DNA from: a virus
Taxonomy: Duplodnaviria > Heunggongvirae > Uroviricota > Caudoviricetes
Reading direction: 5' to 3' (one strand)
IMG/VR virus record: IMGVR_UViG_3300033993_002218
Span: 64,001 to 122,581 of that record
Length of the DNA stretch: 58,581 bases
Shown: positions 9,165-58,581 of the stretch, piece by piece
How positions within the stretch are numbered: position 1 is the stretch's first letter
How the letters are laid out: each line of letters begins with the position of its first letter
Made by a program: the position numbers and the translations under genes
Notes under the pieces: generated by a model
The model's input: only the letters and a program-made list of their open reading frames with translations
Databases searched by the model: none
Told to the model about the DNA's origin: nothing

Positions 9165-9878
9165 TTATTTTAACCATTTGCGAATAGTATTGTCACTAAC
9201 ACCATATTTTTTCCCAACGGCAACATAAGAACTTTCTTGTAACTCTATAAGTAATTGTTCTATCGGTGGTCTTTCAACTCTTCTTTGAGATTTTGAATGA
9301 CATAAAAAGCAAAGACCAGTTTTGGATTTTGTTTTTAACTCAACTTCACAAGAAGAGCAATTATAAACTTTTTTAATTTTTTCTATTTGATTTTTATTTT
9401 TTAATGTTTGTGAATTTTTACTTCTTTTATTTTTACCACGATATGTTGGTGTTTTAGCGTGACAATTTGGGCATAAGATTTTTAAATTTTCTAATATATT
9501 GTTATAATGGTCTCCGTCAATATGATCTAGTTCTAATGGTATTGGTTCACCTAACCACTCACTTAGACCACAACATTCACATTTATATTCCTTTATTCCT
9601 TCACTTATTAATCTTTTTCTCAGTTTATTTGAACTATACCCATAATCTTTAACCAATATCTCATCTAATGGAATAGTGTTAAAGTTATGTGTTTTTCCCT
9701 TTAAATGACCTTGACCAGTAAAGTGGGAAGTATCTATTGCATATAGTTTTTCAAATTTTTTAAATACTCTATAATTGCCTCCTCTTGGGGAGACGCCAAG
9801 TTTAGTAAGTGCCTGAGCAATAGAATAACTTCCTTGAACAGCGTTTTTAAATTCTTCTATTGTATATGAATGTTTCAT
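9165..9878 (-). CDS. Free-standing HNH (homing) endonuclease
   Basis: CECC...ELDHIDGDHYNN..ENLKILCPNCH HNH/Zn motif, a second Cys cluster (CSSC...CFLC) and a C-terminal HTH (VAVGKKYGVSDNTIRKWL). Confidence 0.88.
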   Translation of the reverse strand: MKHSYTIEEFKNAVQGSYSIAQALTKLGVSPRGGNYRVFKKFEKLYAIDTSHFTGQGHLKGKTHNFNTIPLDEILVKDYGYSSNKLRKRLISEGIKEYKCECCGLSEWLGEPIPLELDHIDGDHYNNILENLKILCPNCHAKTPTYRGKNKRSKNSQTLKNKNQIEKIKKVYNCSSCEVELKTKSKTGLCFLCHSKSQRRVERPPIEQLLIELQESSYVAVGKKYGVSDNTIRKWLK

Positions 9879-9900
9879 ACTGATAAACGCATTATATAGT

Positions 9901-9908
9901 TATTTATA
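9901..9908 (-). promoter_or_regulatory. T4-type late promoter TATAAATA for the HNH gene
   Basis: Exact TATAAATA on the minus strand, 22 nt before the ATG, embedded in a hairpin (9882-9918). Confidence 0.75.
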
Positions 9909-9924
9909 TAAGTTTATCGGTTCA

Positions 9925-10196
9925 TACCCGTGAGTGGATTCGAACCACCGCTTGAGAGATTTTCTTACCACTACAACTTTCGTTGCCTTTTCAGTTTGTG
10001 GTCTGGACTATACCTTCACCATACCTTTCGGTTTAGGTGTTCCCCGTCTAGTCTCTACACCTTCATCTTGCGATGCTTGGCTCGGTATTGCCATTTTACA
10101 GGTTTCACCGAATTTGAGGAATTACACTCATAAGGTTTCCCAAATGAGGCTCAATTTTACATAAGTCTCTTGCCTCTTCCGCTGGGCTACACGGGC
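9925..10196 (-). tRNA. trnL(UAA): tRNA-Leu(UAA), intron-containing (exons 10196-10163 and 9963-9925; CCA not encoded)
   Basis: Joined exons give a 73-nt cloverleaf: acceptor GCCCGTG/CACGGGT, anticodon arm AGAGA-CT-TAA-AA-TCTCT, T arm GGTGG-TTCGAAT-CCACT, discriminator A. Confidence 0.92.
9964..10162 (-). ncRNA. Group I self-splicing intron (199 nt, probably IC3) in the tRNA-Leu anticodon
   Basis: Inserted after U34 and ends in G. P1 CUU/GAG; P AAATTCGGTGAAA; Q AATACCGAGC; R GTGTAGAGACTAGA; S AAGGTATAGTCC; P7 GACTA/TAGTC. Same site and motif layout as the cyanobacterial/plastid trnL(UAA) intron. Confidence 0.92.
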
Positions 10197-10208
10197 GTGT
10201 ATAAGACC

Positions 10209-10237
10209 ATTATAACTCAGAAAGTCATAGTGGTCAA
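10209..10237 (-). promoter_or_regulatory. Sigma70-type promoter for tRNA-Leu
   Basis: TTGACC-17 nt-TATAAT, immediately after the 3' end of the CAU tRNA. Confidence 0.7.
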
Positions 10238-10238
10238 G

Positions 10239-10312
10239 TGCAGGTTGTGGGGATCGAACCCACCTTAGCCGAATTATGAGTTCGGTGCTTTCGACCAGAG
10301 AGCTAAACCTGC
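10239..10312 (-). tRNA. tRNA with CAU anticodon (elongator Met or lysidine-modified Ile2)
   Basis: Acceptor GCAGGTT/AACCTGC, anticodon arm CCGAA-CT-CAT-AA-TTCGG, T arm GTGGG-TTCGATC-CCCAC. G1-C72 is paired, so it is not an initiator tRNA. Confidence 0.9.
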
Positions 10313-10314
10313 AT

Positions 10315-10341
10315 TTGCTATTCGCAAATAACGAATAGCAA
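10315..10341. repeat. Inverted repeat filling the inter-tRNA spacer
   Basis: TTGCTATTCG-7 nt-CGAATAGCAA, a perfect 10-bp stem. Confidence 0.8.
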
Positions 10342-10429
10342 TACCAGCCGAGGGTATCGAACCCTCCCAAAGGCCCTAATCTGGGGCAAATCGCTTATAA
10401 GGCGACTCTGAACACCTGTTCTGACTGGC
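10342..10429 (-). tRNA. Non-canonical tRNA with UAU (Ile) anticodon, long variable arm and minimal D arm
   Basis: Acceptor GCCAGTC/GGCTGGT, anticodon arm GTCGC-CT-TAT-AA-GCGAT, extra arm GCCC-CAGATTA-GGGC, T arm GAGGG-TTCGATA-CCCTC, D arm GAAC-AGGT-GTTC; 88 nt. Confidence 0.75.
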
Positions 10430-10444
10430 GTAAAATCCAGATCA

Positions 10445-10473
10445 ATTATAGAGGATCTGGAACTCTCTGTCAA
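10445..10473 (-). promoter_or_regulatory. Consensus sigma70 promoter for the tRNA cluster
   Basis: TTGACA-17 nt-TATAAT. The -10 sits in the loop of TCCAGATC/GATCTGGA (10436-10461). Confidence 0.8.
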
Positions 10474-10640
10474 CAACCTTCTTCGTGGTCTGTATATATT
10501 CGAACAAGGTCATCATCGGCAGGCATCATCACTGCTGCATTTCCATTTTCACCAACAATTCCGATGTGCTCTCCATTTTCGACTCGTTCGATAAGTTCGT
10601 CAAAGCGTTCTTGAAATTCTTCCACGGTAAAAACTTCCAT
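10470..10640 (-). CDS. Small Phd/YefM-like (antitoxin-fold) protein, 56 aa
   Basis: Manual translation: MEVFTVEEFQERFDELIERVENGEHIGIVGENGNAAVMMPADDDLVRIYTDHEEGC. The N-terminus fits the Phd/YefM pattern (F.ELI.RV..GE.I.I...G..A.M.P). Confidence 0.6.
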   Translation of the reverse strand: MEVFTVEEFQERFDELIERVENGEHIGIVGENGNAAVMMPADDDLVRIYTDHEEGC

Positions 10641-10661
10641 TTTTGTTTTTTATTTAGTTTG

Positions 10662-10853
10662 TCAGAATGGATTAGAATAAACTAGATTATCTTCATTTAC
10701 TTGATCACGAACAACTTCAAGAACATTCATAAACTGTTCAATATTTTCACATTCTACCACCTTTTCATTTCCTTCACTAGAGTAGAGATAAAACTTACGA
10801 GCAAGTGTATCAACTACACATTTAGTTAGGAACTCTTCCGTCTTATGGGACAT
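10662..10853 (-). CDS. Conserved cyanophage hypothetical protein
   Basis: 63-aa ORF behind its own consensus promoter. Confidence 0.6.
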   Translation of the reverse strand: MSHKTEEFLTKCVVDTLARKFYLYSSEGNEKVVECENIEQFMNVLEVVRDQVNEDNLVYSNPF

Positions 10854-10878
10854 TTGGGCATTTCTTCGTTACTCAAGC

Positions 10879-10907
10879 ATTATAGGGCATCTGGAGCAGG
10901 GTGTCAA
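10879..10907 (-). promoter_or_regulatory. Consensus sigma70 promoter
   Basis: TTGACA-17 nt-TATAAT; its spacer shares TCCAGAT with the 10445-10473 promoter. Confidence 0.8.
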
Positions 10908-11443
10908 GCAATTCGATTATTTATATTTTTTGTGTACCAAGTTGCCATAGTATATCTTTTTCCACTCAATATTTCCGTTACACCATGAATATGTTTTGCT
11001 CCTGATGTAAAAATCACTAATTTTCCAGGTTTGGGAATGATACTATAATTATAATCTCGGAAATAAGTTTCTCCACCAGTAAAATCATCATTCAAATATA
11101 ATACAGAAGAATAATCACGATTTGAAGAATAATGTGGTTTTTGTGGGTCATCAATCCAAAAATTGTCAGCATGTGCTTCTAGTTTCATTCCAACTCCCCA
11201 ATAAACTAGATTTGTAAATTCGAGGTATATATTTTCTTCCTCATAAAATTTCATACAAATATTAATTATTCTTTGATGAATGATATTTGTTAAATCTTTG
11301 ATACTTTCGCCGTAGGAAGTGACAATTCTACTATCCCAAAATCCTTTAGATGCATCGTTAGGTGAATGACTTTCTTGATAGTTTATCAAGGTTTTACATT
11401 CATCAAGGGTTATAAAATTATCTTGTTCGAATATTTGTTCCAT
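10904..11443 (-). CDS. 2OG-Fe(II) oxygenase (prolyl-4-hydroxylase-like)
   Basis: HAD motif, SSVLYLNDDFTGGET, HGV..ILSGKRY. Confidence 0.85.
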   Translation of the reverse strand: MEQIFEQDNFITLDECKTLINYQESHSPNDASKGFWDSRIVTSYGESIKDLTNIIHQRIINICMKFYEEENIYLEFTNLVYWGVGMKLEAHADNFWIDDPQKPHYSSNRDYSSVLYLNDDFTGGETYFRDYNYSIIPKPGKLVIFTSGAKHIHGVTEILSGKRYTMATWYTKNINNRIA

Positions 11444-11449
11444 AAAAAA

Positions 11450-12046
11450 TTAAGCACTAGTATCGTTCACATAATACCAAGTAACAGCGACTCGTTTTTT
11501 GCCAGATAAAACCTTTTGTCCTGAATGTGGGAAGCACCAATTAGATGGAAAAATTAATCCGTATCCTGGAGAAGGTTTATAAGTCTTATGTGGGAATTCT
11601 GTTCCACCACCTTCAAAATCATCATTTAAATATAAAACAATACTTATGATTCTATGATATTCCTTTGAATTTGGATCATTTGAAGTATCATGATGAAACT
11701 TATATTCTTGATTTGGAGAATATTCTAAGACTTGAATTGATTCTCTATAACAAGTAGTACTATATCCTATAGGGACAGGATAATACTGAAACATAGAATT
11801 AATTGGAATAACTCTTTCTTTATAAACTAAGAGAGATTCATTTATTCTACTGTGCAAAAGTTTAGTTGCTTGATGATCCTCATTCATGGAAGAACCAAAA
11901 CTAGACCTTACTGAAGTATCTGTTCTTAATTTTCCATCAGAATTAAATACTGTATTTTGTTGAAATGGCAATTCATCAACATATGAGTTAACAATTTTCA
12001 GTTCATGTTCATCAAGAACTTTAATAACTTGAATTAAATTATTCAT
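11450..12046 (-). CDS. 2OG-Fe(II) oxygenase (prolyl-4-hydroxylase-like)
   Basis: HHD motif, SIVLYLNDDFEGGGTEF, FPSNWCFPH..VLSGKKR. Confidence 0.85.
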   Translation of the reverse strand: MNNLIQVIKVLDEHELKIVNSYVDELPFQQNTVFNSDGKLRTDTSVRSSFGSSMNEDHQATKLLHSRINESLLVYKERVIPINSMFQYYPVPIGYSTTCYRESIQVLEYSPNQEYKFHHDTSNDPNSKEYHRIISIVLYLNDDFEGGGTEFPHKTYKPSPGYGLIFPSNWCFPHSGQKVLSGKKRVAVTWYYVNDTSA

Positions 12047-12050
12047 TTAA

Positions 12051-12212
12051 TTACCATTTATCAACAGGGCATTTTTGATTAGGAATTCTTACTTTAGCAG
12101 GCATAAAACATCCACATTTTTTACATTGTCTGGTGGGTTTGAAAAAATGCTCACATTGTAGACAGATTTTCATTTTATCAATTGCTTGACGATTTTCAGG
12201 ATTGTTCTGCAT
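12051..12212 (-). CDS. Small Cys-rich protein, 53 aa
   Basis: Manual translation: MQNNPENRQAIDKMKICLQCEHFFKPTRQCKKCGCFMPAKVRIPNQKCPVDKW (CxxC...CxxCxC...CP). Confidence 0.7.
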   Translation of the reverse strand: MQNNPENRQAIDKMKICLQCEHFFKPTRQCKKCGCFMPAKVRIPNQKCPVDKW

Positions 12213-12696
12213 TCAATTCTGCCTCCGCTTGTGCCATTATATCTTCTGGAGTATACATTTCAGACATATTAGATATGTTAGTTATTAATAGATCTGCTGA
12301 AATTTGCGAAGATGAAATATATTCTGAAATTTTTGTATCTAATAAATCTCTAAGTCTAGAATCTCCATGTCTATGAAAATATTCTGATAATGCTAGATTA
12401 ATTGGTGATATAATATTTAATAATAAGGAATTATCTTGAGTATTACTTTGTGGTGTAGACTGATTTTCTACTGGTTGAATATTATCTACTTTCTTAGATT
12501 CTCTTTGATCACCAATTGAAATATCTGGATTTATAATACTTTCTGGTTTTAAGATAAAATCAGGATCATATTTAGATACTGCATCATCAATTTCATCCAA
12601 TGTAGCATTAGGTTTAACTGGAACTATTGCCCAAGAGTTATCTTCAAACTCAACACGAATTTGTCCAGGAAGAATCTCTAAAATTGTATATTTCAT
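12196..12696 (-). CDS. Hypothetical protein
   Basis: 166-aa ORF in the operon with the oxygenases. Confidence 0.55.
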   Translation of the reverse strand: MKYTILEILPGQIRVEFEDNSWAIVPVKPNATLDEIDDAVSKYDPDFILKPESIINPDISIGDQRESKKVDNIQPVENQSTPQSNTQDNSLLLNIISPINLALSEYFHRHGDSRLRDLLDTKISEYISSSQISADLLITNISNMSEMYTPEDIMAQAEAELNAEQS

Positions 12697-12769
12697 AAAA
12701 TTTTATAAAACTTAAATTGTATAGTATATATTATATCACCCTAACAGCATTTTCATTATATTATTTGTT

Positions 12770-13759
12770 CTAAATTGCAAATCCTGCTACTGCTCCTAGA
12801 TTAGTCCAAGTTACAAGTCCACTATTTACAATATAATAACCAGGAAGACCACCAGAACCACCACCACTACCTACAGTATAGTTTCCATTAGATCCGGGAA
12901 ATCCATTACCACCAACTTCTCCCCAATTACCACCTGTTCCACCAGTTCCTCCAGTACCAGCATTAATACCACCACCACCTCCACCAGAACCACCTGTTAA
13001 ATTTTGATTAAATCCTTGTCCTAGACCACCAGCACCACCAGCACCTCCACCAGTGTAACATAATTGGGAAATAAACCTATAACAATTATTACATTTATAA
13101 TACAGAAAGATGGGCTGGATAATGCACAAAGTAGTAGCATTTGGAAACCCAATTGTACAATAACTTCCAGAACCAAATTGTCTACTACAGGATAAATCTG
13201 CACTTCCTTGTGCGCCAGGCCAGACGTTTCCATTTTCGTCAAACAAAATATTAACACAAACATTAGATGCACCTAAATATGCTGTATAGGAGCAATCATA
13301 AACTCCCAGTCCTCCAGTTCCACCAAGCCCACCGGCACCACCACCAGCATAAATGGTTCCTTGATTATCGAAAGTGACTGGAGAACCGGCAAATATAGCA
13401 TTTCCACCATTTCCACCATTTGGAAGACCTCCAGCACCTTGAATGGAACCATAATTCTCAACTCTTAAAGTCCCACCTAATCCAGTTGGTATAGTTAATG
13501 CATAATTAAAAGGAGAAGCACTTGATGATCCGACAATAACTCCAGGATTAATGATAACTCTTTTTTTTATTGATGAAGTCCATGCAGTTATACCAAAGGC
13601 ATTATTGAAGGCAGTTTGTAGATTTAGATCAACAGTTGTGATGGAGATAATTAATAAAAGTTCACTTGCATCTCTTATAAAATTAACATATTTCCATTGT
13701 CCACCTTCACGAATATAAGTATCTACATTAGCCCAAACACCACCTTGCCTTAGTTTCAT
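12770..13759 (-). CDS. gp38-like glycine-rich adhesin (putative receptor-binding tip)
   Basis: N-terminal Trp motifs (RQGGVW, REGGQW), then N.GSIQGAGG, IYAGGGAGG.GG.GG and long glycine-rich segments, as in T2/T6 gp38. Confidence 0.7.
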   Translation of the reverse strand: MKLRQGGVWANVDTYIREGGQWKYVNFIRDASELLLIISITTVDLNLQTAFNNAFGITAWTSSIKKRVIINPGVIVGSSSASPFNYALTIPTGLGGTLRVENYGSIQGAGGLPNGGNGGNAIFAGSPVTFDNQGTIYAGGGAGGLGGTGGLGVYDCSYTAYLGASNVCVNILFDENGNVWPGAQGSADLSCSRQFGSGSYCTIGFPNATTLCIIQPIFLYYKCNNCYRFISQLCYTGGGAGGAGGLGQGFNQNLTGGSGGGGGGINAGTGGTGGTGGNWGEVGGNGFPGSNGNYTVGSGGGSGGLPGYYIVNSGLVTWTNLGAVAGFAI

Positions 13760-13779
13760 AATTTACACCATTTTTCCTA

Positions 13780-14094
13780 CTAAGGTTTTGGATATTTTAT
13801 TTTTACATCATCACATTTTTCAAGATATTCATTCATTTTAGTATTATCACCTCTCTGTGACCAATAATAAGCATCAATAAAATCTTCTTTTGGTGGATAT
13901 TCTGGAGCCCTTAATCTTTGATATTCTTTTAAATCATAATCCACCTTTAATCTTTCTAGTTCAGTAGAAATCTCTTTTTTGGTCGGTTTAGTTTGATTTT
14001 CATCTAACCATTGTATATCCTCATATGTATCTCCAAGTACACTCCAGATTGCACCCGGTCTTAGTGAATTTAATGCAGAAATTATAGTAATCAT
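13780..14094 (-). CDS. Tail-fibre assembly/chaperone-like protein (XkdW-like)
   Basis: ALNSLRPGAIWSV...W.DENQTKPT...YQRLRAPEYP...KIKYPK. Start overlaps the stop of the fibre gene (TAATG). Confidence 0.65.
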   Translation of the reverse strand: MITIISALNSLRPGAIWSVLGDTYEDIQWLDENQTKPTKKEISTELERLKVDYDLKEYQRLRAPEYPPKEDFIDAYYWSQRGDNTKMNEYLEKCDDVKIKYPKP

Positions 14095-17000
14095 TATAGA
14101 ATCTCTATTAATTGAAAAGCTCCCCATCTAAGATATGCAGTACCAGTATTGTAGGTAGCATGATAATATGTATAAGTTATTGGAGAAGTTGTTCCAGGTG
14201 AATCCATATAATTAATAGATAAACCACATATATTATTTCCCCCCGCACTAAATTGGTGTAATGTTGAACCAGGCCAGATTGAAACACCACCTCTAAAAAT
14301 ACTAGTAACGACACCACCATTAACGGCGTCATTTTGAATCCCTCCACTTAATAGAATTAATATTTTACTATTAGCATTAGTGGGAGTAATCGTGGCACTA
14401 AATCCACTAGAAACAAAATTAACCGAAGTAGTTCCTACTAGTGTCTGCGTCTGTGATTGAACAACTTGTACTAGTTTAGTAGTAATCTGAGTATCATACC
14501 AAATATCACCTTCGCAAGCACTTAATGGTGCAGTTGATTGTATATATCTTGCGCCATAAGCATTGCTATTTGAAGCAACCGTAATGGTTGATCCACTTGC
14601 AGATATTGGTGGTGGGCAAGAATATCCAGTTTGTGTTACAGTTATATTGGTAACACCAGGAGGACCAGGAGGACCAGGAACACTTGAAGGATCACCAGGA
14701 GGACCAGGAGGACCAGCAACACTTGAAGGATCACCAGGAGGACCAGGAGGACCAGCAACACTTGAAGGATCACCAGGAGGACCAGGAGGACCAGTAACAC
14801 TAGGACCAGGAGGACCAGGAGGACCTGTTTGTTGGACAAAAGTTAGTGTTGCTTCATTACCAGAAGCTGTGGCAGTAACACCATCGCCAATAAAATTAAT
14901 CGTATTGATTGCCCCTGCGGTTCCTTGAAGATTTCCCTCATCTCTAATAGTAATACCACCAATAGTTCCTGGAACAGCAGATGTTCCTGCTGACAGTGTT
15001 CCACGATTTGGGAAATAATACTTTCCATCGTCACCATTACGAACGCAAATTAATACCCAATTGTAAGGAATATCTACATTAGATGTAAAATCAGAAATTC
15101 TAAAATTATCTGCTAATGAAACATTTCCAGATCCAAGTGGAAGAATGTAATAAAGTGCCTGCCAGTTTGATAATGGAATTCCATCAGTTGTTGCAGTTGC
15201 ATTTGCAGCACCACCAACTCCAGTGATGGTTCCAGACAATGGGCAGGAAATATTAAAATGTCCTTCAGTTGAAAAATTATTTCCTCTACCATTTGAAATA
15301 ACAATAAATCTAGTATCCCATTTAACAAATCCAGATGCGTTTACAGTAATATTTCCACCACCATTAATGTTTACATTTGATCGCAGTGATTCTGATAAAG
15401 TAACAGAATTATCAGAAATATTTCCACTGGTTCCGGAACCATACCAAATACTCAATCTATTTGAAGCATTACCTTTGTAGAGATCTCCTCCGGGATTTAA
15501 GTATAAAGATGATGCTGGTTCCAGTGCCATATTATCACTATTTAAACCTTCACCATCATTTTGAGTTCCTATTCGGAGACATCCATTTTCAGTACTGCTG
15601 GGTGTTATTGCATAAGTATTATTATCATTATCCCAAGTAATATATCCATAATCTCCCCCACCAGTATCTGTACCACCAAAAGATTCTTCACGACCAAAAT
15701 ACATAATTTTGGTCGCATCAAGTTCTATGTCTGCTTTGAATCTAACGGTATTTTCAAATGTTGCTATTCCAGTAACATTTAAATTTGAAGTAAAAGGTCC
15801 ATTAAATGCTGCTGCATAAACAGTTCCTGGAAATCTTGTATCACCAGAACCATCAAGAAGAGATGCTGTTCTTTGTAGAGTTGAGAAAACACCGGTATAT
15901 TGTCTTACATAAATTGGTTCATTTCCATTATCAGAAGTGGCAAGTTCAACATAACCAACATCATCTGCAGTTCCTCCAACAAGAATTCTAAAGTAATCAT
16001 TATTTGCCATCTGACCACGAATCAATTCAGTGGTATTTGTTCCAGTCAGCATTGTATTGGTTAAACGACCAATAAAATCACCAGTAGGAGTTACATTCCC
16101 AATAGCATCTACTCTAAGTGTTGTAGTAAGACCAACAGTTCCTCCATTAACGTTAGATGCACTTAATGTAGAATCTGCAAAGTAAAATCCACCAGCACCA
16201 GCACCTCTTTGATTTATTAACCAAGTTGCTCCATCACCATTAGCCCTATTCCAATGAATATAAGAACCTTGTGTATCAATAGTGGTATATGGTGAAGTAG
16301 TTCTTGGACTCAATATAGTTGCCTTATCAGACTGAGCAACTGTGGCAGCACCAAAATTAATATCAATATTAGAAGCAGCAGTAATTCTACCTTTAGAATC
16401 TACAGTTACAATACCGACTTGAGTAGAAGATCCATAAGTTCCTGCTGTCACACCAGTGGTTGTTAAAATTCCTGCTGCAGTTACATTTGTACTTCCATCA
16501 AAGTTAACATTCCAAGATAAGTCTCCAGTAATTGCTATGTTTCTAGCATTTGCTAATTTGGTTGCCGTATCAGCATTTCCTATAAATTGTCCATTAAAAG
16601 TATTGGAATATACATCTTTCCACCTTAATGAAGGACTACCTAAATCAGTAACGCCATTAGTTGCTGGAGTGATTCCACTACCAACTCTACCATTAAATGT
16701 TATAGTATCTGCTGAAGCATCACCTAAAATTACATTACTATTAAAAGTAGCAATATCTGTTACTACTAACCTATCATCAATAGTAGTGGTTCCTCCAGCA
16801 GAATCAATTGTTAAATTGCCCGTTGTAGTATCAATTTCATTATCACCAGTAATTCCTATTTGAATATTATCAATATAAGCACCACCATTAGCATCAATAT
16901 AGTTAGTGAATGTACTAATACCAGTTACTAGAAGATTTCCTAATGATAATAAATTCGCTGATGGATTATAAGAAATTCCAGCATCAGTATAAACTGATTC

Positions 17001-40488: not shown

Positions 40489-40539
40489 GGTGCGTTGCTT
40501 CCCAAATGGTACTTCCGTCGCGTGTGCGATCAACGTACT
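40489..40539 (-). ncRNA. Glutamine riboswitch (glnA RNA motif)
   Basis: CGUUG(P1)-A-UCGC-ACAC-GCGA(P2)-C-GGAAGUA-CCA-UU-UGG(P3)-GAAG-CAACG(P1'): a three-way junction with E-loop matching the glnA motif, upstream of DUF4278. Confidence 0.82.
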
Positions 40540-48944: not shown

Positions 48945-48945
48945 T

Positions 48946-50183: not shown

Positions 50184-50295
50184 TCTTTTTTAAGGTATTT
50201 GTCTTATTATAGATTATTTTTGGCGATCTGTAAAGTTGTGGCCAAGTATCACGAATTATTTCTGCAAGTTTATAAGGAGTTGTTGTAGAAATCAT
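50176..50295 (-). CDS. Micro-ORF, 39 aa
   Basis: Manual translation: MISTTTPYKLAEIIRDTWPQLYRSPKIIYNKTNTLKKNE; fills the gap and overlaps the next start. Confidence 0.5.
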   Translation of the reverse strand: MISTTTPYKLAEIIRDTWPQLYRSPKIIYNKTNTLKKNE

Positions 50296-50300
50296 AATAA

Positions 50301-50672: not shown

Positions 50673-50719
50673 TCGTAATGTGCGAATCTTAAGTATTTAG
50701 ATTCTCAAGTCACTACAAT

Positions 50720-50926
50720 TTAATTCTCCCAGTTTTTATAAATGTTTCTAAAATACAAATCAACTTCATCTAAATCATCCAGATGAACATCACAAGTGTA
50801 GTTATGATCATCACACCATTCTAATGCAATTTCATGAAATTTTTGCTCACGCATAGTTCTTTCAACTCCATAAGTTCTCGCAAATGAGGACATTATGAAA
50901 TTCCAGCACTGATCTTCGCGTTTCAT
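50720..50926 (-). CDS. Conserved cyanophage hypothetical protein
   Basis: 68 aa, ATGA-coupled to talC. Confidence 0.55.
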   Translation of the reverse strand: MKREDQCWNFIMSSFARTYGVERTMREQKFHEIALEWCDDHNYTCDVHLDDLDEVDLYFRNIYKNWEN

Positions 50927-51582: not shown

Positions 51583-51587
51583 AAAAG

Positions 51588-51634
51588 AAAAAGAACTCCT
51601 TAGTAATTATAAGAAGTTCTTTTTAGAGTGTCTA
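51588..51634 (-). promoter_or_regulatory. talC sigma70 promoter inside a hairpin covering the RBS
   Basis: TAGACA-17 nt-TATAAT; inverted repeat AAAAAGAACTTCT/AGGAGTTCTTTTT with the -10 in the loop. Confidence 0.65.
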
Positions 51635-51661
51635 TGAATTGTTGGGATTTGAAGATATTAT

Positions 51662-52363
51662 TCAATACTTTTCCAAGCAATAGATTCCATTCTTTTCCAC
51701 AATTGCAGAACATGTATCGCACCAATCTCCACAGCACATATAAGTAATTTTATTAAACTTACGAATATTTCCAGAATGTATGTGACCACAAATTACTCCG
51801 TCATATTTCTTATCTCTCTGAACACAAAATGATGCAATATCAGTCTCATATTGATTGATATAGTTCTTACCCCGAACACTATTCTTCAGTGCATAAACCA
51901 AAGAGAATCTGAAGAATCTTTCCAGTAACAAACTGATCGGTGTAATCAATTCATATCCTTTATTAAACATTAATTGTTTCCAGGAACCGGATGAATACTC
52001 GGAATACTTATCTCCATGAACACAAAGAAACTTATTTCCCTTTGAATCTTTATGCGTATATTCATCTACCATTCGGAAGTTCTTATGTTCAAAATCACAG
52101 TAGCGACGAATTTGCCCTTCGTGATTTCCAAGAATATAAATGACCTCTGTTCCCCTTTTAGCAAGATTTAATATTTGATGAACACACTCAGTATGTTCTT
52201 TTGTCCAACGAGTATTATATTTTTCCATACAGTAGATGTCTATTATATCACCTACCATTACTAACTTTTTAGTTTTGAGTTCTTTCAAAAACTTTAAGAA
52301 CTTTTCAGTATTACATCTAGGTGTTCCTAAATGAACATCACTGATAAAAGTTGTATCGTACAT
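51662..52363 (-). CDS. Metallophosphoesterase, UDP-2,3-diacylglucosamine hydrolase (LpxH/YbbF)-like
   Basis: SDVHLG, GDIID, GNHE, HGD, GHIH and GDW motifs. Confidence 0.85.
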   Translation of the reverse strand: MYDTTFISDVHLGTPRCNTEKFLKFLKELKTKKLVMVGDIIDIYCMEKYNTRWTKEHTECVHQILNLAKRGTEVIYILGNHEGQIRRYCDFEHKNFRMVDEYTHKDSKGNKFLCVHGDKYSEYSSGSWKQLMFNKGYELITPISLLLERFFRFSLVYALKNSVRGKNYINQYETDIASFCVQRDKKYDGVICGHIHSGNIRKFNKITYMCCGDWCDTCSAIVEKNGIYCLEKY

Positions 52364-52383
52364 AAAAAAGTATTTTTAAATAT

Positions 52384-53103
52384 TTATGATATGACTTGCA
52401 ATAAATTTCCAAAATAATAAAGTATGTCATACTCATGCATTTTCTTTCTTGTGGGAAAATTATGATGATCCTTATGCATTTCTGCTCCCCACATTAGAGG
52501 AAATAATAATCTCAAATTAATTGCACTATAAGGATTTTGTTTTCCCAAATGAGAGATAATAAACAGAAGATTAATCATCCAAAAACTAATTACGGGTATG
52601 AACGGAAATAAGATTGTAGAAATAACAGAATACTGCATATGATTATAATGTTGTTTTTTTATAACATCATCTCTCATAAATTTTAAAGTCAATTTAGGAC
52701 TTGGTGGATGTTCATCATTCCAATTTTTAAAAATGGTATTAAGAACACCAACATATCTAAAATTATGTGGATCTTTATTTGTATCAATAAATCTATGATG
52801 ATTGATATGAATCGCAGAATTTGCAGCAACACTTCCAAAATTACACATGGAAAATAATATACAAAAAAGTTCATTTATTCTTTTTGAAAATTTAAACTGC
52901 TGATGTGCAATTGTTCTGTGCATAAACAATTCCGCAGACAAATTAAAAATAGTCAATCCAATTAAAAATGAAATAATTAGATACCAAATTCCAAAAAAAT
53001 AACAATAGGCAAAGAAAAATAAATGACTGATTGCAAAAAAAGTCAAGTATGTTTTCTTAGTTCTTGGTAATTTAATTGTCAAAGTTTTTAAAAAAGATTG
53101 CAT
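52384..53103 (-). CDS. Fatty-acid desaturase
   Basis: His boxes HRTIAH, HINHH and HKDHH; D..KDPH; hydrophobic helices. Confidence 0.8.
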   Translation of the reverse strand: MQSFLKTLTIKLPRTKKTYLTFFAISHLFFFAYCYFFGIWYLIISFLIGLTIFNLSAELFMHRTIAHQQFKFSKRINELFCILFSMCNFGSVAANSAIHINHHRFIDTNKDPHNFRYVGVLNTIFKNWNDEHPPSPKLTLKFMRDDVIKKQHYNHMQYSVISTILFPFIPVISFWMINLLFIISHLGKQNPYSAINLRLLFPLMWGAEMHKDHHNFPTRKKMHEYDILYYFGNLLQVIS

Positions 53104-53518
53104 TTTCTATTTCGTCGCAGTTAAATTTTGTCCAACCGTATCTATCAAAAAGTTTATGTGGTATTTTGCTATTTTCCAAAAAGGCAGCAAGACCCTTTAT
53201 ATTTTTTATCTTTCTCTGAGTATTTAATACATCATATGTTTTTTTCAATAACCAAGGTCTTTCTCCTCTATGATTTTTATCAATAAACATTCCATAAAAA
53301 TAATACAATTCTTGAGTATTTGGAAGATAATTTAATTTTGCTGTACTTACTCCAATAATTTGCTGAGTATCAATATCTCTAATCACATAAATTACATGAT
53401 TTACTCTTTCCAATGCTTGCTGGTAATTCAATGCTCCATTTCTTACCCATAAATCAACAATCTTTTCTCTGATTAAAAAATAAGGTTGATTATAAACTCG
53501 AATCAATTCATAGTTCAT
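53072..53518 (-). CDS. GNAT-like protein
   Basis: IIGV...FYGMFIDKNHRG motif-A-like segment; ATGA-coupled to the upstream fibre gene. Confidence 0.5.
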   Translation of the reverse strand: MNYELIRVYNQPYFLIREKIVDLWVRNGALNYQQALERVNHVIYVIRDIDTQQIIGVSTAKLNYLPNTQELYYFYGMFIDKNHRGERPWLLKKTYDVLNTQRKIKNIKGLAAFLENSKIPHKLFDRYGWTKFNCDEIENAIFFKNFDN

Positions 53519-54786
53519 ACTATAGTAGTAAAAGCAGCAGTACAAAAAATTGCTAATAATCCAGAAATAGCAACATAATTTGGTATTTTAGTTGCAACAT
53601 AATTTACAATATGAGACATGAGAGAACTAGTAGATGCAATTGCCACCAATCTAATATTACCACCAGAAATATCAACAGCAAATGTTGCAATTCCAGAATT
53701 TACTTCCGAATATACTTCACTATAAACATTATTAGAACTAGTACAAATTGTAGAAATTTTAACAACTTGTTCTGCATTGCTAATAATAGTATAATCAACT
53801 GAGCGATATTCTCCTATTGAAAATCTTGAATGAATGCCAACGGGATCGGTTGTTTGAGTAACTATATCAATTTCAGATCCATATAGAACTCCACCACCAT
53901 AAGGATACAGTTGAGGATATTGTGTCAATCCATTATCCTTTATGAAGACATTACCACCAACTACAAGTTTTTCTGTTGGGGAAGGTATGTTTATTATACT
54001 GTTTATACCTGTACCTAGACCTACACCTAAATTACCCGGAAAAGTAGCACTGGAATTTGGATTAAACCTCCACTCAGATCTTGGTTGATAACTGAATATT
54101 AAATCATCACCGATTGAATAAGATGCAGCAGCATCCAATGTAACTTCAACTAAATTGCCAAAAGTACCAGAAATATAAGTATTGACAATATTGTAATTTA
54201 TGACTTCAGATCCAGGTGCTGAGACAGCTACAGTGTCTCCTACTGTAAGATACCGTGCCCAAGGATAAATAAAAGCATCAATAGTAATAAAATCGGTAGT
54301 ACTATTACTATCTGCAATAATCGTTGATGTAGTAGTCGAATCTGGAACACCTATTACAACTGGCCCAGTATGGTCAATTTTAACAAATCTATCATCATCA
54401 CCAATAACCAGATCTGCGGTATTAACATTACCAGACTCAATGTGAATATGAGACTGATCCGAAGGAGTCACTGCTGTTGGACGAATTCTTAAATATTGAC
54501 CCTGACCCAGTAAAGATTCGTTTGGTATTAATTCAATATCACCTAGATTATTATATCCAGCAGTGCCGTTACCTATGATTTGAGTTCCAGTTATTTTAAG
54601 ATCACTTATTTTTGCATCACCATTAACATCGAGTATGTATTGAGGATCTGTGGTTCCTATACCAACATTAGAAGTTGTATGAATACCTGATGATGTAGTA
54701 ACCCATTGACATGATTCACCCACAGATACTTCAGAACTACCGGCAGTATCTATCCATTCCCCATCCTGTCTCACAAAAACTGGCAT
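53515..54786 (-). CDS. Tail-fibre-like protein
   Basis: MPVFVRQDGEW start; SQWVTTSSGIHTTSNVGIGTTDP-like segment; C-terminal YRSVDYTI...GIATF.VDISGGNIRL domain. Confidence 0.65.
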   Translation of the reverse strand: MPVFVRQDGEWIDTAGSSEVSVGESCQWVTTSSGIHTTSNVGIGTTDPQYILDVNGDAKISDLKITGTQIIGNGTAGYNNLGDIELIPNESLLGQGQYLRIRPTAVTPSDQSHIHIESGNVNTADLVIGDDDRFVKIDHTGPVVIGVPDSTTTSTIIADSNSTTDFITIDAFIYPWARYLTVGDTVAVSAPGSEVINYNIVNTYISGTFGNLVEVTLDAAASYSIGDDLIFSYQPRSEWRFNPNSSATFPGNLGVGLGTGINSIINIPSPTEKLVVGGNVFIKDNGLTQYPQLYPYGGGVLYGSEIDIVTQTTDPVGIHSRFSIGEYRSVDYTIISNAEQVVKISTICTSSNNVYSEVYSEVNSGIATFAVDISGGNIRLVAIASTSSLMSHIVNYVATKIPNYVAISGLLAIFCTAAFTTIV

Positions 54787-54817
54787 TTCTATTACCTCCT
54801 ATTTTTGATATTTATGA

Positions 54818-56452
54818 TTAGTCATAAGCAATATAAGTATATTTCTTAAATGCAACAAAAGAAATAATGTAATTTATAAATTCAGAATTTGTTGGTGTAG
54901 AAATAAGAACAAATTTATTATCAATAGAATCTACAGAATATGATGTTAATGGAGTATTTGTAGAAACATAAGTTGTACCATATTGATTATGAGATACAGT
55001 AATGCCATATCCAACAGCAATCACCTTTGCAGTTTGAATAACATTTTGTTGATTTCTTGCTCTAATGGTATACTCCACAGAATCATATTCATCTATAGAA
55101 AGAGTTGAATCTATTGTAACTGGACTTAAATCGCCATGACTAACAGCAGTATTAGAATTTCCATAAATGACAAAATTATTGATCGATATATTTCCATGAA
55201 CTTCAAGTCTTTCTGATGGATTATTAGTTCCTATACCAACATTAAAGTTCTCATTTCCAATAATCCAAGTACTATTTCCTACACCAATTGCTAATTGATT
55301 ATCACCAGATGAATTGTAGAGTTGAACATTATGTCCAATCGCTATATTGCAAGATCCATTAGATGATGATCCAGCACTATAACCAAAGAAGTTATTATAA
55401 GATCCATTAGATGATGATCCAGCATTATAACCAAAGAAGTTATTATAAGATCCATCTGTGTTGGCAAATCCTGCTTGAGAACCAAAGAAGTTATTATCAG
55501 TTCCAGTGGTGTTAAGATTACCAGAATTATATCCAAAGAAGTTATTAAAAGATCCAAGAGTATTATATCTACCAGAATACTTACCTAAAAAGTTGTTATG
55601 ATATCCAGCAATACTACAACATCCCGAACCTTTACCGAAGAAGTTATTATCAGATCCATCACTATTATTTAATCCCGAATCGATGCCAAAGAAGTTATTA
55701 CGAGATCCAGAAGTATTATTAAGTCCCGCACAAGCACCAAAGAAGTTATTGTTACTTCCAAATGTAGTACAATTACCAGCATTACATCCTACAAAGAAAT
55801 TATTTGCTGCACTTGTAATGGAAGGTAATGATGTATTACATGAAATAAAGTTTGAAGTGCAGCAGGCAATGATTGCACCAGAACCACCAACTACAGTGCT
55901 GATTCCCGGTTGATACCATATATCACCATCGCAAGGATCAACTGGTGCTTCTGTAGAAATATATCTTGCCCCATAAGCATTACTTGCCGAAGTAATGCCT
56001 ATTGTTGCTCCAATAGAAATAATTGGATTTGAGCAACCATATCCAATTTGAATTACAAAGACACTTCCGATTCCTGTATTACCACCAGATCCTCCATTAC
56101 TTGATCCATAATAAGTTGCTCTTTCTCTTACATGAACCATACCCTCATACACTCTTGTCACATTACCATTGACATCTTCTATCACGATGTCATAAATGTA
56201 TCTTCCAGGTTTTATGTTTGAAGTTTCTTCTGAAGTTAAAGAAATTTCAACCTGTCCAAGAGTTGGTGGATCTACTATTACAGTTGCGAAAGTTACTGAA
56301 GCGGCACTACCAGTCCACTTCCTCATCTGAGAAGCTACAATATAATTGGTTAAATCAATTGCAGAATTGGAATTGGAGTCCTTTAATGAAAAAATTTGGC
56401 TAAAGTCCGCGCCAGCATTAATGACTATATTATTTACATATACTGGTGCCAT
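54818..56452 (-). CDS. Fibre/baseplate-attachment protein with BppU-like N-terminus and 14-aa repeats
   Basis: N.VINAGADFSQIF...LT.EET..IKPGRYIYDI N-domain; GDIWY motif; NNFFG repeats; late promoter TATAAATA at 56476-56483. Confidence 0.75.
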   Translation of the reverse strand: MAPVYVNNIVINAGADFSQIFSLKDSNSNSAIDLTNYIVASQMRKWTGSAASVTFATVIVDPPTLGQVEISLTSEETSNIKPGRYIYDIVIEDVNGNVTRVYEGMVHVRERATYYGSSNGGSGGNTGIGSVFVIQIGYGCSNPIISIGATIGITSASNAYGARYISTEAPVDPCDGDIWYQPGISTVVGGSGAIIACCTSNFISCNTSLPSITSAANNFFVGCNAGNCTTFGSNNNFFGACAGLNNTSGSRNNFFGIDSGLNNSDGSDNNFFGKGSGCCSIAGYHNNFLGKYSGRYNTLGSFNNFFGYNSGNLNTTGTDNNFFGSQAGFANTDGSYNNFFGYNAGSSSNGSYNNFFGYSAGSSSNGSCNIAIGHNVQLYNSSGDNQLAIGVGNSTWIIGNENFNVGIGTNNPSERLEVHGNISINNFVIYGNSNTAVSHGDLSPVTIDSTLSIDEYDSVEYTIRARNQQNVIQTAKVIAVGYGITVSHNQYGTTYVSTNTPLTSYSVDSIDNKFVLISTPTNSEFINYIISFVAFKKYTYIAYD

Positions 56453-56475
56453 TTTTTAAATGTTCCCCTACTCTT

Positions 56476-56483
56476 TATTTATA
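56476..56483 (-). promoter_or_regulatory. T4-type late promoter TATAAATA
   Basis: Exact consensus upstream of the 56452 start. Confidence 0.7.
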
Positions 56484-56496
56484 ATTGTATTAAAAA

Positions 56497-56571
56497 TCAA
56501 AGATCTTGTGTGAGGGACATTATAAACATAAAGATTCCGAAGAGTATGAAAACTGTGAGAATGAAAAACAT
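56497..56571 (-). CDS. Hydrophobic micro-peptide, 24 aa
   Basis: Manual translation: MFFILTVFILFGIFMFIMSLTQDL. Confidence 0.4.
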   Translation of the reverse strand: MFFILTVFILFGIFMFIMSLTQDL

Positions 56572-56575
56572 ATTC

Positions 56576-56695
56576 TTAAAAATACATTACTGAAAGAGTA
56601 AATATGACGAATATGATAACTGTGAACATCATAATTCCTACTCCTGCCCAGATTATCCAAGGTTCCATAGGTTCGTGTTGAGGATTGTGAGACAT
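56576..56695 (-). CDS. Single-TM micro-protein, 39 aa
   Basis: MSHNPQHEPMEPWIIWAGVGIMMFTVIIFVIFTLSVMYF. Confidence 0.55.
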   Translation of the reverse strand: MSHNPQHEPMEPWIIWAGVGIMMFTVIIFVIFTLSVMYF

Positions 56696-56708
56696 ATTAT
56701 TGGTGCTT

Positions 56709-56969
56709 TTAATTATTGGGTTTATCATTAGTATCTCGTTCCTGAATTCCGACTTCCATTGCATTCATTGTAAAATTATATGCATTGACTTTTTGATTTT
56801 TACTAACTTTACTAATATAGTAAATACGTCCTATATCATCTTTAAGTTGATTCAGTTGTGTTTGAATTCCTTCCATTGATGCATAATTAGAAGTTGTTGA
56901 AAAGTCCTCTGGATAACTTACAAAAGCATCTTCCAGTGTTTTGATTTGTTCTGTTGTTAGTTGTTTCAT
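56709..56969 (-). CDS. Hypothetical protein
   Basis: 86-aa ORF; TTGACA-18 nt-TAAGAT upstream. Confidence 0.5.
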   Translation of the reverse strand: MKQLTTEQIKTLEDAFVSYPEDFSTTSNYASMEGIQTQLNQLKDDIGRIYYISKVSKNQKVNAYNFTMNAMEVGIQERDTNDKPNN

Positions 56970-57015
56970 ATGTTTTGGGGTTTATGAGCATCTTAGCAGA
57001 GTTGGGAGTCTTATG

Positions 57016-57165
57016 TCAATAAAAAGCATCTTTATTTAATTTATAAGTCTTTCCATTTACTGTAATTTTACCATCACCTTCTCCTGTCAATGCTTTTCGT
57101 AATTGTTTACTTGCAACAGGGTCTCTGAGTATCTCTTCTAGTTTTTTACTTATAGGTAATTTCAT
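57016..57165 (-). CDS. Small hypothetical protein, 49 aa
   Basis: MKLPISKKLEEILRDPVASKQLRKALTGEGDGKITVNGKTYKLNKDAFY (C-terminal part of the tracked ORF). Confidence 0.5.
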   Translation of the reverse strand: MKLPISKKLEEILRDPVASKQLRKALTGEGDGKITVNGKTYKLNKDAFY

Positions 57166-57169
57166 AGTC

Positions 57170-57325
57170 TTATTGGTGCTTTTGTAAATATGCAACCAAA
57201 TCTTTAAGGTAGTCAGATGCCTTATCCCAATCCCCATTAAACCTATCATTAAGTTCTTGATAAATTTTTTCTGCATTTTCAGGTGCTAGATTGGTTGCCT
57301 CAATAAATCCTTCTTTAGTAATCAT
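57170..57325 (-). CDS. Small hypothetical protein, 51 aa
   Basis: Manual translation: MITKEGFIEATNLAPENAEKIYQELNDRFNGDWDKASDYLKDLVAYLQKHQ. Confidence 0.5.
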   Translation of the reverse strand: MITKEGFIEATNLAPENAEKIYQELNDRFNGDWDKASDYLKDLVAYLQKHQ

Positions 57326-57944
57326 AATGTTTTAATGTTTTTTCTGTAAGGTTAATAATTTCTACTATGGGCAATTCTATCACATAACACTCCGTATATC
57401 CACTATCCGTGGTCTCAAAATCAATTTTATAATTTTGATATTTTTGGTGGATGAATTTTTCAAGATGATGGACTTGATAGTGAATTCCTTTCCATATCTT
57501 AATAACACTATGCAATTTATTTTTGGTGTGGTTTGCTAATTTATTGAAACTTCTACCAACCTTATAAACCAATTTACCTTCAAGATAGACAATAACCAAA
57601 TACAAATAATCAGTATCAAAATATCTTTCTTTCCAAGGATTTTGGTAGTTATTTCCTTGTAGTTTTTCGCCATATTTTTTGACTCTTTCATCAGTTTCTT
57701 TGGTTAATCCTTTATTCCAAACTTTTTGACCTGTTTTCTTTCCTTTATTCCAAGGTTCTTTACCAACCTGCCATTCAGAAAAGTTTCTTGTTACACCAAT
57801 TGTTTTAAGATACTTATATACGGAAACTCTTGGTATGTTTAGTTGTCTTCCAATTTCGTGGGAGGATAAACCAGACAAATACATTTGTTTCCAAATCTCC
57901 CTATCCTTATCAGTATATTTTATATTCATTTGTGGTCTGCTCAC
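57315..57944 (-). CDS. Putative free-standing homing endonuclease (HTH + NUMOD-like repeats + GIY-YIG/T5orf172-like domain)
   Basis: HTH GLSSHEIGRQLNIPRVSVYKYL; PWNKGKK and VWNKGLTK repeats; YLYLV...YKVGRS...LEKFIH...GYTECY; GTG start. Confidence 0.65.
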   Translation of the reverse strand: MSRPQMNIKYTDKDREIWKQMYLSGLSSHEIGRQLNIPRVSVYKYLKTIGVTRNFSEWQVGKEPWNKGKKTGQKVWNKGLTKETDERVKKYGEKLQGNNYQNPWKERYFDTDYLYLVIVYLEGKLVYKVGRSFNKLANHTKNKLHSVIKIWKGIHYQVHHLEKFIHQKYQNYKIDFETTDSGYTECYVIELPIVEIINLTEKTLKHYDY

Positions 57945-57953
57945 GGATATTAT

Positions 57954-57961
57954 TATTTATA
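57954..57961 (-). promoter_or_regulatory. T4-type late promoter TATAAATA
   Basis: Exact consensus overlapping the U-tract of the psbA terminator. Confidence 0.7.
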
Positions 57962-57986
57962 AAAAAGAGACCTTTACAGGTCTCTT
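57961..57986 (-). terminator. Intrinsic terminator after psbA
   Basis: AAGAGACCT-GTAA-AGGTCTCTT followed by a T-tract. Confidence 0.85.
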
Positions 57987-58012
57987 CATTATATCACAAT
58001 TTAGTGATTATA

Positions 58013-58581
58013 TCAACCGATAGAAGGAGCAGTTAGAGCAACCGAAGTTGTTTCTGCTGCAGCCAAATCTAAAGGAAAATTATGTGCATTTCTCTCGTGC
58101 ATAACTTCCATACCCAACCCAGATTTGTTCAATATGTCCGCCCAAGTAGGAATTACCCGGTTTTGACTATCCAGAATACTCTGATTGAAATTTAGTCCGT
58201 TGAGGTTGAATGCCATAGTGCTTACGCCTAGAGCAGTAAACCAGATGCCCACAACGGGCCAAGCGGCGAGGAAGAAGTGAAGTGAACGAGAATTATTGAA
58301 CGAAGCATATTGGAAAATGAGTCGTCCAAAGTAACCGTGAGCCAATTGTCCAAAAGTTTCCTTAAGGGTTGGACTATATCTTCACCTATTAAAGGTGCTG
58401 GGCGCTCTTGCCTGTTATTAAGGGAACTGTATCCCTCAGGTAGTCTCTGAACCTTTCCTAGATGTATCTAGGACTTGGATGCTGATTGCCATATCCATAA
58501 AGGACTTAGGTTTCCAGCAGTTCACCCAGTTTAACGTGACCCGCTCTGTCAAGCCACGATGTTATAAGTCTCTTCTTCTTG
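58013..58581 (-). CDS. psbA: Photosystem II D1 protein, 3' part, split by an intron (exons >58581-58552 and 58342-58013)
   Basis: [10 protein letters not shown] | [29 protein letters not shown]...[23 protein letters not shown]. The tracked ORF's TTG 'Met' is actually the intron 3' end. Confidence 0.97.
58343..58551 (-). ncRNA. Group I self-splicing intron (209 nt) in psbA between Ala250 and Ala251
   Basis: 5' exon ends in U and the intron ends in G. P1 CGUGGCU/GGUCACG with U-G at the splice site; P10 GAGC/GCUC; P AACTGCTGGAAA; Q AATCAGC; R GTTCAGAGACTA; S AAGATATAGTCC. Removal restores the D1 frame. Confidence 0.95.

Follow-up and report, generated by a model that had tools for sequence, protein, structure and literature searches.

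Two putative collaborative-homing cassettes in the tRNA-Leu(UAA) and psbA genes of a freshwater cyanomyovirus

How might a group I intron that contains no open reading frame (ORF) spread among phages, and what has it to do with a nuclease gene that lies beside the split gene rather than inside the intron? This question is raised twice by one stretch of viral DNA, the last 58.6 kb of a 122.6-kb IMG/VR contig from a freshwater cyanomyovirus (IMGVR_UViG_3300033993_002218, positions 64,001 to 122,581; "the window" below means this whole stretch of 58,581 nucleotides, nt). One ORF-less intron splits a tRNA-Leu(UAA) gene, another splits psbA, and a free-standing nuclease gene follows each. Judging from the sequences compared here, each intron and its nuclease are separable yet co-occur far above chance, and the regulatory structures in front of the nuclease genes (a hairpin around a late-promoter motif at one locus, a terminator and then a late-promoter motif at the other) are conserved. 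The overall logic matches, by analogy, that of published collaborative homing, and it seems reasonably probable that the window holds two independent cassettes of this kind, one at each locus.

The nearest isolate to the window is Synechococcus phage S-SRM01, itself a freshwater cyanomyovirus. Nearly all long ORFs of the window are on the minus strand, as are both the tRNA-Leu and psbA loci. The whole 122.6-kb contig contains exactly two group I introns, of 199 nt and 209 nt, which score 62.6 and 88.5 bits against the Rfam group I intron family RF00028 (gathering score 50 bits); the initial annotation of the window had correctly described them as two ORF-less introns of about 200 nt in trnL and psbA. 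Transfer RNA genes were called by ARAGORN with introns allowed. Compared loci are given L-numbers; most are viral contigs, L001 and L002 are from S-SRM01, and L332-L337 are cyanobacterial genomes.

The tRNA-Leu(UAA) intron and its HNH neighbour

The split tRNA-Leu(UAA) is the third gene of a three-gene tRNA cluster that lies on the minus strand downstream of two sigma-70-like promoters. ARAGORN reads it as tRNA-Leu(taa) and sets an intron of 199 nt at position 35, giving a 34-nt 5' exon whose last base is U34 (10163-10196, minus strand), the intron itself (9964-10162, minus strand), and a 39-nt 3' exon with a short variable arm and discriminator A (9925-9963, minus strand; ARAGORN together with sequence reading). 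The RF00028 match spans 9982-10172. The last bases of the 5' exon are CUU, in which U-1 pairs with the G of UGAG, the intron ends in GGUAAG, with a terminal G, and the 3' exon starts with AAAA. These borders agree with intronless alleles, and insertion at U34/A35 is the classical site, type "Leu.3Ug" in the survey of Williams (2020). Splicing would give a tRNA of 73 nt whose variable arm is short. Its counterpart in S-SRM01, an intronless orthologue also of 73 nt, is a tRNA-Leu(TAA) both by ARAGORN and in the tRNAscan-SE table of PMC8557907.

The nuclease gene at this locus, P0001, starts 46 nt past the tRNA end (9165-9878, minus strand). It encodes a free-standing HNH endonuclease of 237 amino acids that matches PHROG 10822, "HNH endonuclease", over its full length (E 5.5e-58). 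The HNH core, DH...N...H with flanking CxxC pairs, occupies residues ~100-142 and is followed by Cys pairs and a C-terminal helix-turn-helix. By Pfam the HNH score is 15.1 bits, under the cut-off of 21.4, and the PDB sequences yield only a weak match to I-HmuI (1u3e, E 0.39).

The relationship between intron and nuclease is seen in an allele series at one syntenic phage locus, recognized by tRNA-Met, tRNA-Leu and the same downstream ORF. S-SRM01 has neither element, and its sequence resumes exactly where the HNH cassette of the window ends; L193 has the intron, identical at 196 of 196 positions, without the HNH gene; and the window, L008, L013 and L015 have both. From this series it follows that intron and HNH gene are separate insertions. 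All HNH copies that are at least 75% identical lie 46-48 nt behind an intron-split tRNA-Leu(UAA), and the contig-truncated copies in L012 and L188 likewise follow an intron. Apart from the fully identical copy in L193, the intron copies in other viral contigs are 86-95% identical to that of the window. The introns beside HNH copies are 86-95% identical while their exons diverge widely, from short-arm to canonical long-arm tRNA-Leu, and the presence of such similar introns in such different exons points to horizontal movement. A megablast search among isolate phages, in which the window's own genome was possibly masked, found no close relative of the tRNA locus.

How far the pairing exceeds chance was judged on loci that a scan for the intron motif had selected regardless of any nuclease. 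Among the matches listed, to which the counts for tRNA-type introns here and below refer, 106 of 120 had intron-like sequence, mostly in tRNA-Leu(UAA), and 55 loci could be evaluated for nuclease linkage. An HNH relative lies inside the intron or at most 300 nt away in 19 of these 55, and the density of such relatives is 0.36 per kb at introns compared with 0.004 per kb elsewhere in the same loci, a difference of about 90-fold. Their positions vary: some lie downstream on the same strand, some lie upstream, some abut on the opposite strand, and still others are encoded within the intron, on one strand or the other. In L141 and L197, opposite-strand HNH genes lie inside the tRNA-Leu intron.

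The likely target of P0001 is suggested by its kinship. In a quick maximum-likelihood tree of HNH sequences, unrooted and therefore giving no direction of change, the clade of the window is sister (SH-aLRT support 96) to the HNH protein encoded inside the tRNA-Leu(UAA) intron of the huge phage LR756511. Intron-encoded enzymes cut intronless alleles near the insertion site (PMC6083498). Since the sister enzyme is intron-encoded, P0001 likely has the same target, namely the intronless allele near the intron site.

The spacer between tRNA and HNH gene carries an exact TATAAATA, the T4-type late-promoter motif, at 9908-9901 on the minus strand. The motif is in the loop of a hairpin (9880-9920, minus strand; -9.4 kcal/mol, z -3.4) whose 3' arm ends 2 nt before the HNH ATG. 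Such a hairpin with TATAAATA recurs in every related locus of the downstream type, the arm sequences differing. When these hairpins are aligned, 80% of cells are paired as against 26-48% in slid controls, and five of nine pairs have changed on both sides; the hairpin around TATAAATA is conserved through compensatory changes.

Several further features of the tRNA genes deserve mention. A sigma-70-like promoter (TTGACC, 17 nt, TATAAT; 11 of 12 consensus positions, a consensus match only) lies directly upstream of the split tRNA-Leu at 10209-10237, minus strand. The phage UAA tRNA (window 9925-10196, and L008-L016) has a variable arm of 5 nt, unlike bacterial tRNA-Leu, and its charging with leucine is inferred from the anticodon only; the same intron is also found in canonical long-arm tRNA-Leu genes of other viral contigs. 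At 10342-10429 (minus strand) is an 88-nt tRNA with a long variable arm and the anticodon UAU, which ARAGORN calls tRNA-Ile(tat) and which has a weak Rfam match to tRNA-Sec. It is kept in S-SRM01 (L002:1384-1473) and L017 (1456-1545), and it is unusual in joining an Ile-type anticodon to a class II scaffold.

Related group I-like introns were called by ARAGORN in other viral tRNA genes (L101-L220), eight times in Arg(UCU) and also in Met(CAU), Phe(GAA) and Asn(GUU), and some of these calls may have misplaced splice sites. At its gathering threshold Rfam misses both the ORF-containing intron of L006 and the intron of L014. The latter (L014:2101-2453) is chimeric: its last 66 nt and the HNH cassette are like those of the window, its 5' half is unrelated, and its insertion point is seemingly shifted by one base (U33/U34). 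It may be a product of recombination by co-conversion.

The psbA intron and the gene that follows it

At the second locus the contig ends within psbA, so that only the last 30 nt of the upstream exon are present (58552-58581, minus strand) and psbA further upstream is cut off. The 209-nt ORF-less intron (58343-58551, minus strand) lies at the codons for NIVA/AHGYF, and the last exon runs through the stop codon (58013-58342, minus strand). The intron borders are set by the intronless psbA genes of hosts and of L099, and they give a P1 of GUGGCU/GGUCAC with a U.G pair and an intron end of CAAUUG, last base G, followed by GCU. Rfam places P1 differently, on the exon 11-mer AAGAGACTTAT; that placement was rejected because the intronless psbA genes give other borders. 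The 11-mer AAGAGACTTAT is found at 58562-58572 (minus strand), within the psbA exon and 13 nt short of its splice site, and at 10161-10171 (minus strand), across the 5' splice site of the tRNA. Its occurrence at both loci is probably a coincidence.

With the second intron of S-SRM01 psbA, the psbA intron of the window shares 98% identity. The two introns of the window do share the P7 that the initial annotation had pointed out as GACTA/TAGTC, present as AGACUA/UAGUC, but this is the Rfam consensus of the whole family and thus makes no special link between them. The idea that they are close copies of each other was rejected on the same ground and because BLAST gives no cross-match. Three introns interrupt the psbA gene of S-SRM01 (L001, MW015081 206508-211995); an HNH ORF is present in one, and the other two are ORF-less. 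The existing annotation breaks this gene into two "photosystem II D1 protein" coding-sequence pieces and leaves the later exons unannotated, and the published S-SRM01 paper discusses just one psbA intron. In the viral contigs L317, L331 and L324, psbA is split into at least five exon pieces by at least four introns.

The gene downstream of psbA in the window, P0002 (57315-57929, minus strand), encodes a free-standing nuclease of 204 amino acids with an N-terminal helix-turn-helix, NUMOD3-like repeats and a C-terminal domain of the T5orf172/MUG113 type. Its conserved ATG lies 83 nt past the psbA stop codon; a GTG start at 68 nt was rejected, being out of frame in L099. With 46 nt at the tRNA locus and 83 nt here, the distance of 50-70 nt that had been given for both nuclease genes has to be corrected.

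The pairing of this family with the psbA intron was approached from both sides. Viral contigs yielded 13 relatives of P0002, every one of them directly behind psbA, and in 12 of the 13 cases that psbA has the intron. Conversely, contigs collected by the intron's own P1 sequence numbered 23, of which 19 were evaluable; the P0002 family is downstream in 17 (15 at 78% identity or more, two at 34%), and a classical GIY-YIG gene occupies the same slot in the other two. Together with the enrichment at tRNA-type introns, these counts bear out, across viral contigs, the expectation that introns and nucleases are neighbours more often than chance allows. The sole intronless carrier of the P0002 family is L099, and its insertion site has three changed bases, reading ATC TGT GCT|GCA where every other phage or host copy compared has GTG or GTT and then GCT. 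This is what a self-protecting change of the target would look like. S-SRM01 has the same intron with an Endonuclease VII (Endo VII)-type gene instead of the P0002 family, so the psbA intron and the nuclease are separable; that Endo VII-type gene matches the third psbA intron of S-SRM01, at the S-PM2 site.

The spacer between psbA and P0002 has a different arrangement from that at the tRNA locus. A terminator-like hairpin with an 8-bp stem (57962-57987, minus strand) is recognized in the spacer fold, and its T run is fused to an exact TATAAATA at 57961-57954 on the minus strand, directly after the hairpin. The 88-nt psbA-nuclease spacer that contains it folds with -23 kcal/mol (z -5.9); a simple terminator scan of the window did not list the hairpin at 57987-57962. 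Terminator-like hairpin and TATAAATA stand in the same layout before the nuclease genes of S-SRM01, S-PM2, L099 and L328. An exact TATAAATA preceded or enclosed by a hairpin had been proposed for both loci, and both layouts proved to be conserved. Across phages, the slot after psbA, with the same terminator and TATAAATA in front of it, is taken by genes of the Endo VII, T5orf172 and GIY-YIG types. In L317, L331 and L324 it holds a classical GIY-YIG endonuclease, and L328 combines an S-PM2-type terminator with a P0002-like N-terminus.

What kind of nuclease P0002 encodes is less clear. Its middle part is common to many homing endonucleases that bear NUMOD3, and its C-terminal domain has the conserved pattern LYL...YKIGR...E...G.TE. 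In an alignment of 28 sequences including P0002, T5orf172 is matched by 20 and MUG113 by 12 (E up to 0.01); both families belong to the GIY-YIG clan. The AlphaFold model (pLDDT 88) was compared by VIA-align, and three of the four top matches are GIY-YIG nucleases, all of them weak (At-HIGLE, Z 4.7; Slx1, Z 4.4 and 4.1); the value for UvrC is Z 2.7. For the C-terminal domain, Foldseek found nothing significant in the PDB, and a PDB sequence search with P0002 matched only the helix-turn-helix. Given Z scores of 4.1-4.7 and no Foldseek match, "GIY-YIG-like" is a reasonable, not a proven, description, and is moderately supported. Of the two nuclease families first proposed, then, HNH is confirmed by PHROG and the second has to be stated with this reserve. 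The Endonuclease VII domain (PF02945) finds no match in P0002 and matches the S-SRM01 gene in the same slot at E 2.3e-26; by this measure P0002 is not an Endo VII-type enzyme like F-CphI.

Two other RNA elements were met along the way. In L099 (1206-1300) a PhotoRC-II RNA motif (RF01717, 81 bits) lies upstream of psbA; the equivalent region of the window phage is past the contig end. The window also has a glutamine riboswitch aptamer (RF01739) at 40489-40537 on the minus strand, scoring 43.1 bits against a gathering score of 35.

A possible homing mechanism and its rivals

Under collaborative homing, each ORF-less intron would sit where the local sequence cannot change freely, in the anticodon loop of tRNA-Leu(UAA) and at the psbA codons for NIVA|AHGYF, with the gene for a free-standing homing endonuclease just downstream of the split gene. 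The nuclease would cut intron-less alleles of co-infecting related phages at or near the insertion site. In the carrier genome the intron would split the target, and splicing would keep the gene functional. Recombinational repair of the cut would then copy intron and nuclease gene together into the recipient. Read-through from upstream early-type promoters would be prevented from yielding nuclease, at the tRNA locus by the hairpin, which would bury the HNH translation start, and at the psbA locus by the terminator, which would end the read-through transcript. A T4-type late promoter at TATAAATA, in the hairpin loop or right after the terminator, would give a late transcript that can be translated.

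Several observations weigh against this interpretation. L017 has a 65%-identical HNH gene next to tRNA-Leu(GAG), and 124 nt downstream of that gene is a tRNA-Leu(UAA) that lacks the intron and shares the GACTT|AAAATC core, so that either the intron is not needed for protection there or the specificity has shifted. About two thirds of the intron-bearing loci have no HNH gene of the P0001 family nearby; evidently the intron persists well alone, and L017 and the solitary introns together make the partnership a facultative one. The exon sequence conserved around the tRNA insertion site across all carriers amounts to only ~11 nt, which is short for a specific target. TATAAATA occurs seven times in the window, all seven on the coding strand, where nine would be expected by chance. 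Finally, P0002 by itself scores 17.5 bits against a Pfam cut-off of 20 for the T5orf172/MUG113-type domain, and its best structural Z, 4.7, is a weak fold assignment. The general strategy that the initial annotation saw repeated at the two loci stands in so far as both have separable, co-occurring pairs of intron and nuclease; it is qualified by L017 and L099, in which the nuclease lies beside an intronless gene (at an altered site in L099).

Some of the same observations can be accommodated if the nucleases are ordinary free-standing Seg/Mob-like enzymes that cut near their own insertion point, at the 3' end of the tRNA or psbA gene or in its downstream flank. The intron would then give no protection and would simply be co-converted, lying within a few hundred bases. 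The HNH cassette is indeed inserted cleanly and precisely at the 3' end of the tRNA, so that the cassette, too, breaks up a possible target; the HNH gene of L017 lies beside an intronless tRNA-Leu(UAA); and L014 joins a window-type HNH gene and the last 66 nt of the intron to an unrelated 5' half, as expected of a conversion tract from the nuclease gene. The filling of the slot after psbA by at least three nuclease families in different phages fits as well. This explanation is possible but doubtful, as HNH relatives are repeatedly encoded inside the same intron family, which ties the HNH family to the insertion site, the L099 substitutions fall exactly at the intron site and not at the gene end, and a single nuclease family accompanies 17 of the 19 intron-bearing psbA contigs. 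The adjacency might even have no functional meaning, if nuclease genes quite generally tend to land in phage tRNA clusters and in the psbA 3' flank, and introns likewise in conserved genes. S-SRM01 does have a different HNH-like ORF (a CHNCHH motif by eye, no Pfam HNH match) between two other tRNAs of its cluster, psbA of related contigs has up to four or more introns, and most introns of the tRNA family are solitary. Such a coincidence of hot spots is very unlikely all the same, in view of the density of a single HNH family, ~90-fold higher at one intron family than elsewhere in the same loci, the conservation of spacing and regulatory hairpin across divergent exons, and the co-occurrence of nuclease and intron at psbA (12 of 13 and 17 of 19).

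The hosts offer a further possible target. The psbA genes most like that of the phage are from the freshwater picocyanobacteria Cyanobium, Vulcanococcus and Synechococcus; they are intronless, identical to the window exons over the 12 nt 5' of the site, and carry a single difference in the 12 nt that lie 3' of it. Group I introns are absent from five such genomes. The tRNA-Leu(UAA) genes located in four of the five are intronless and of the long-arm type, sharing with the phage gene only GACTT|AAAATC, the 11-nt core. The statement that both interrupted genes are also present in the host is true of psbA nearly to the letter around the site, and of tRNA-Leu(UAA) for the presence of the gene and this core. 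Taken together, these intronless host genes would suit nucleases that chiefly cut host psbA and tRNA-Leu(UAA) late in infection, for host shut-off or to favour the phage copies, with phage-to-phage spread secondary. We regard this as the remotest of the explanations: host tRNA-Leu differs considerably outside the core, in its stems and in having a long variable arm; cutting a host gene late would bring little obvious gain; and the patchy, mobile distribution of the nucleases fits selfish elements better than a fixed phage function. Attack on host psbA as such is conceivable but speculative.

Known systems and the place of phage tRNA introns

The definition of collaborative homing rests on two phage systems (PMC6083498 and PMC3984707). 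One of them consists of F-CphI and the ORF-less psbA intron of cyanophage S-PM2, for which collaborative homing is experimentally established (Zeng, Bonocora and Shub 2009, as reported there). The psbA locus of the window resembles that system in having a free-standing nuclease gene directly downstream of psbA, a terminator-like hairpin fused to TATAAATA between the two, and an intron core 86% identical to that of S-PM2 over ~125 nt. The intron sites differ: that of S-PM2 is at MHER|NAHNF, where the window is uninterrupted, and that of the window is ~250 nt upstream at NIVA|AHGYF. The nucleases differ too, F-CphI being of the Endonuclease VII type and P0002 lacking that domain and having one of the T5orf172 type. 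S-SRM01 holds introns at both the window site and the S-PM2 site, yet only the Endo VII-type gene.

Free-standing endonucleases of the Seg and Mob groups, such as SegB in the T4 tRNA cluster, provide a second comparison, and late promoters together with hairpins that hide the start codon are typical of T4 homing-endonuclease genes. Like T4 mobE and SegB, the window genes place a free-standing HNH or GIY-YIG gene of a T4-like phage by an intron or in a tRNA cluster; the T4 enzymes promote the inheritance of neighbouring DNA. Unlike the situation at T4 mobE and nrdB, the interrupted gene is the tRNA itself and the intron has no ORF remnant, and, as far as tested, the window nuclease has no relationship to MobE or SegB. 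The case on which trans homing was defined is T4 mobE with the nrdB intron, which carries a defunct I-TevIII (PMC2790892), and SegB is also treated in PMC13096335.

The tRNA intron can also be set beside the tRNA-Leu(UAA) introns of cells (Leu.3Ug), with which it shares the same CUU/AAAA insertion at U34/A35 and the small, ORF-less ribozyme type. Its similarity to cyanobacterial tRNA introns is detectable in sequence: in a sample of 401 cyanobacterial genomes, the best matches have 71-75% identity over ~200 nt, one 124-nt match reaches 80%, and many other genomes match just a 63-nt core. In the five top-ranked matches whose exons were read, among L332-L337, the introns are in initiator tRNA-fMet at a CU|CAUAA site, not in tRNA-Leu. 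The nearest relatives of the window intron are other viral copies, at 79-100% identity. Unlike the cellular introns, then, it is in a phage gene, its closest kin are viral, and the likely host group has no such intron.

Descriptions of comparable cases are scarce. A 2014 review (PMC3984707) places every phage intron known at the time in a protein-coding gene, and the tRNA-intron survey of Williams (2020) covers cellular genomes only; literature searches on group I introns in the tRNA genes of phages brought up no such case. It is just conceivable, though unlikely, that phages are the main reservoir and vehicle of the small group I introns of tRNA anticodon loops, with HNH-type nucleases moving them between phage tRNA genes and occasionally into cells, and that the paired late nucleases might in addition attack the psbA and tRNA-Leu genes of hosts, which have no intron. 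These anticodon-loop introns have traditionally been seen as ancient relics of cyanobacteria and plastids, passed on by vertical inheritance.

Collaborative homing has been proposed as the way in which free-standing nucleases and bare introns come together to form mobile introns, and few cases have been published. The putative psbA cassette would join that of F-CphI as a second case at psbA, with an insertion site and a nuclease family of its own, and the tRNA cassette would add a phage tRNA gene to the protein-coding genes of the 2014 review. There is also a bearing on annotation, since tRNA finders that do not detect introns miss split tRNA genes. The tRNA case, moreover, offers alleles of nearly every stage: none, the intron alone, the intron with a neighbouring nuclease on either strand, and the nuclease inside the intron. 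With these stages and a cultured relative in S-SRM01, the pathway would be directly testable.

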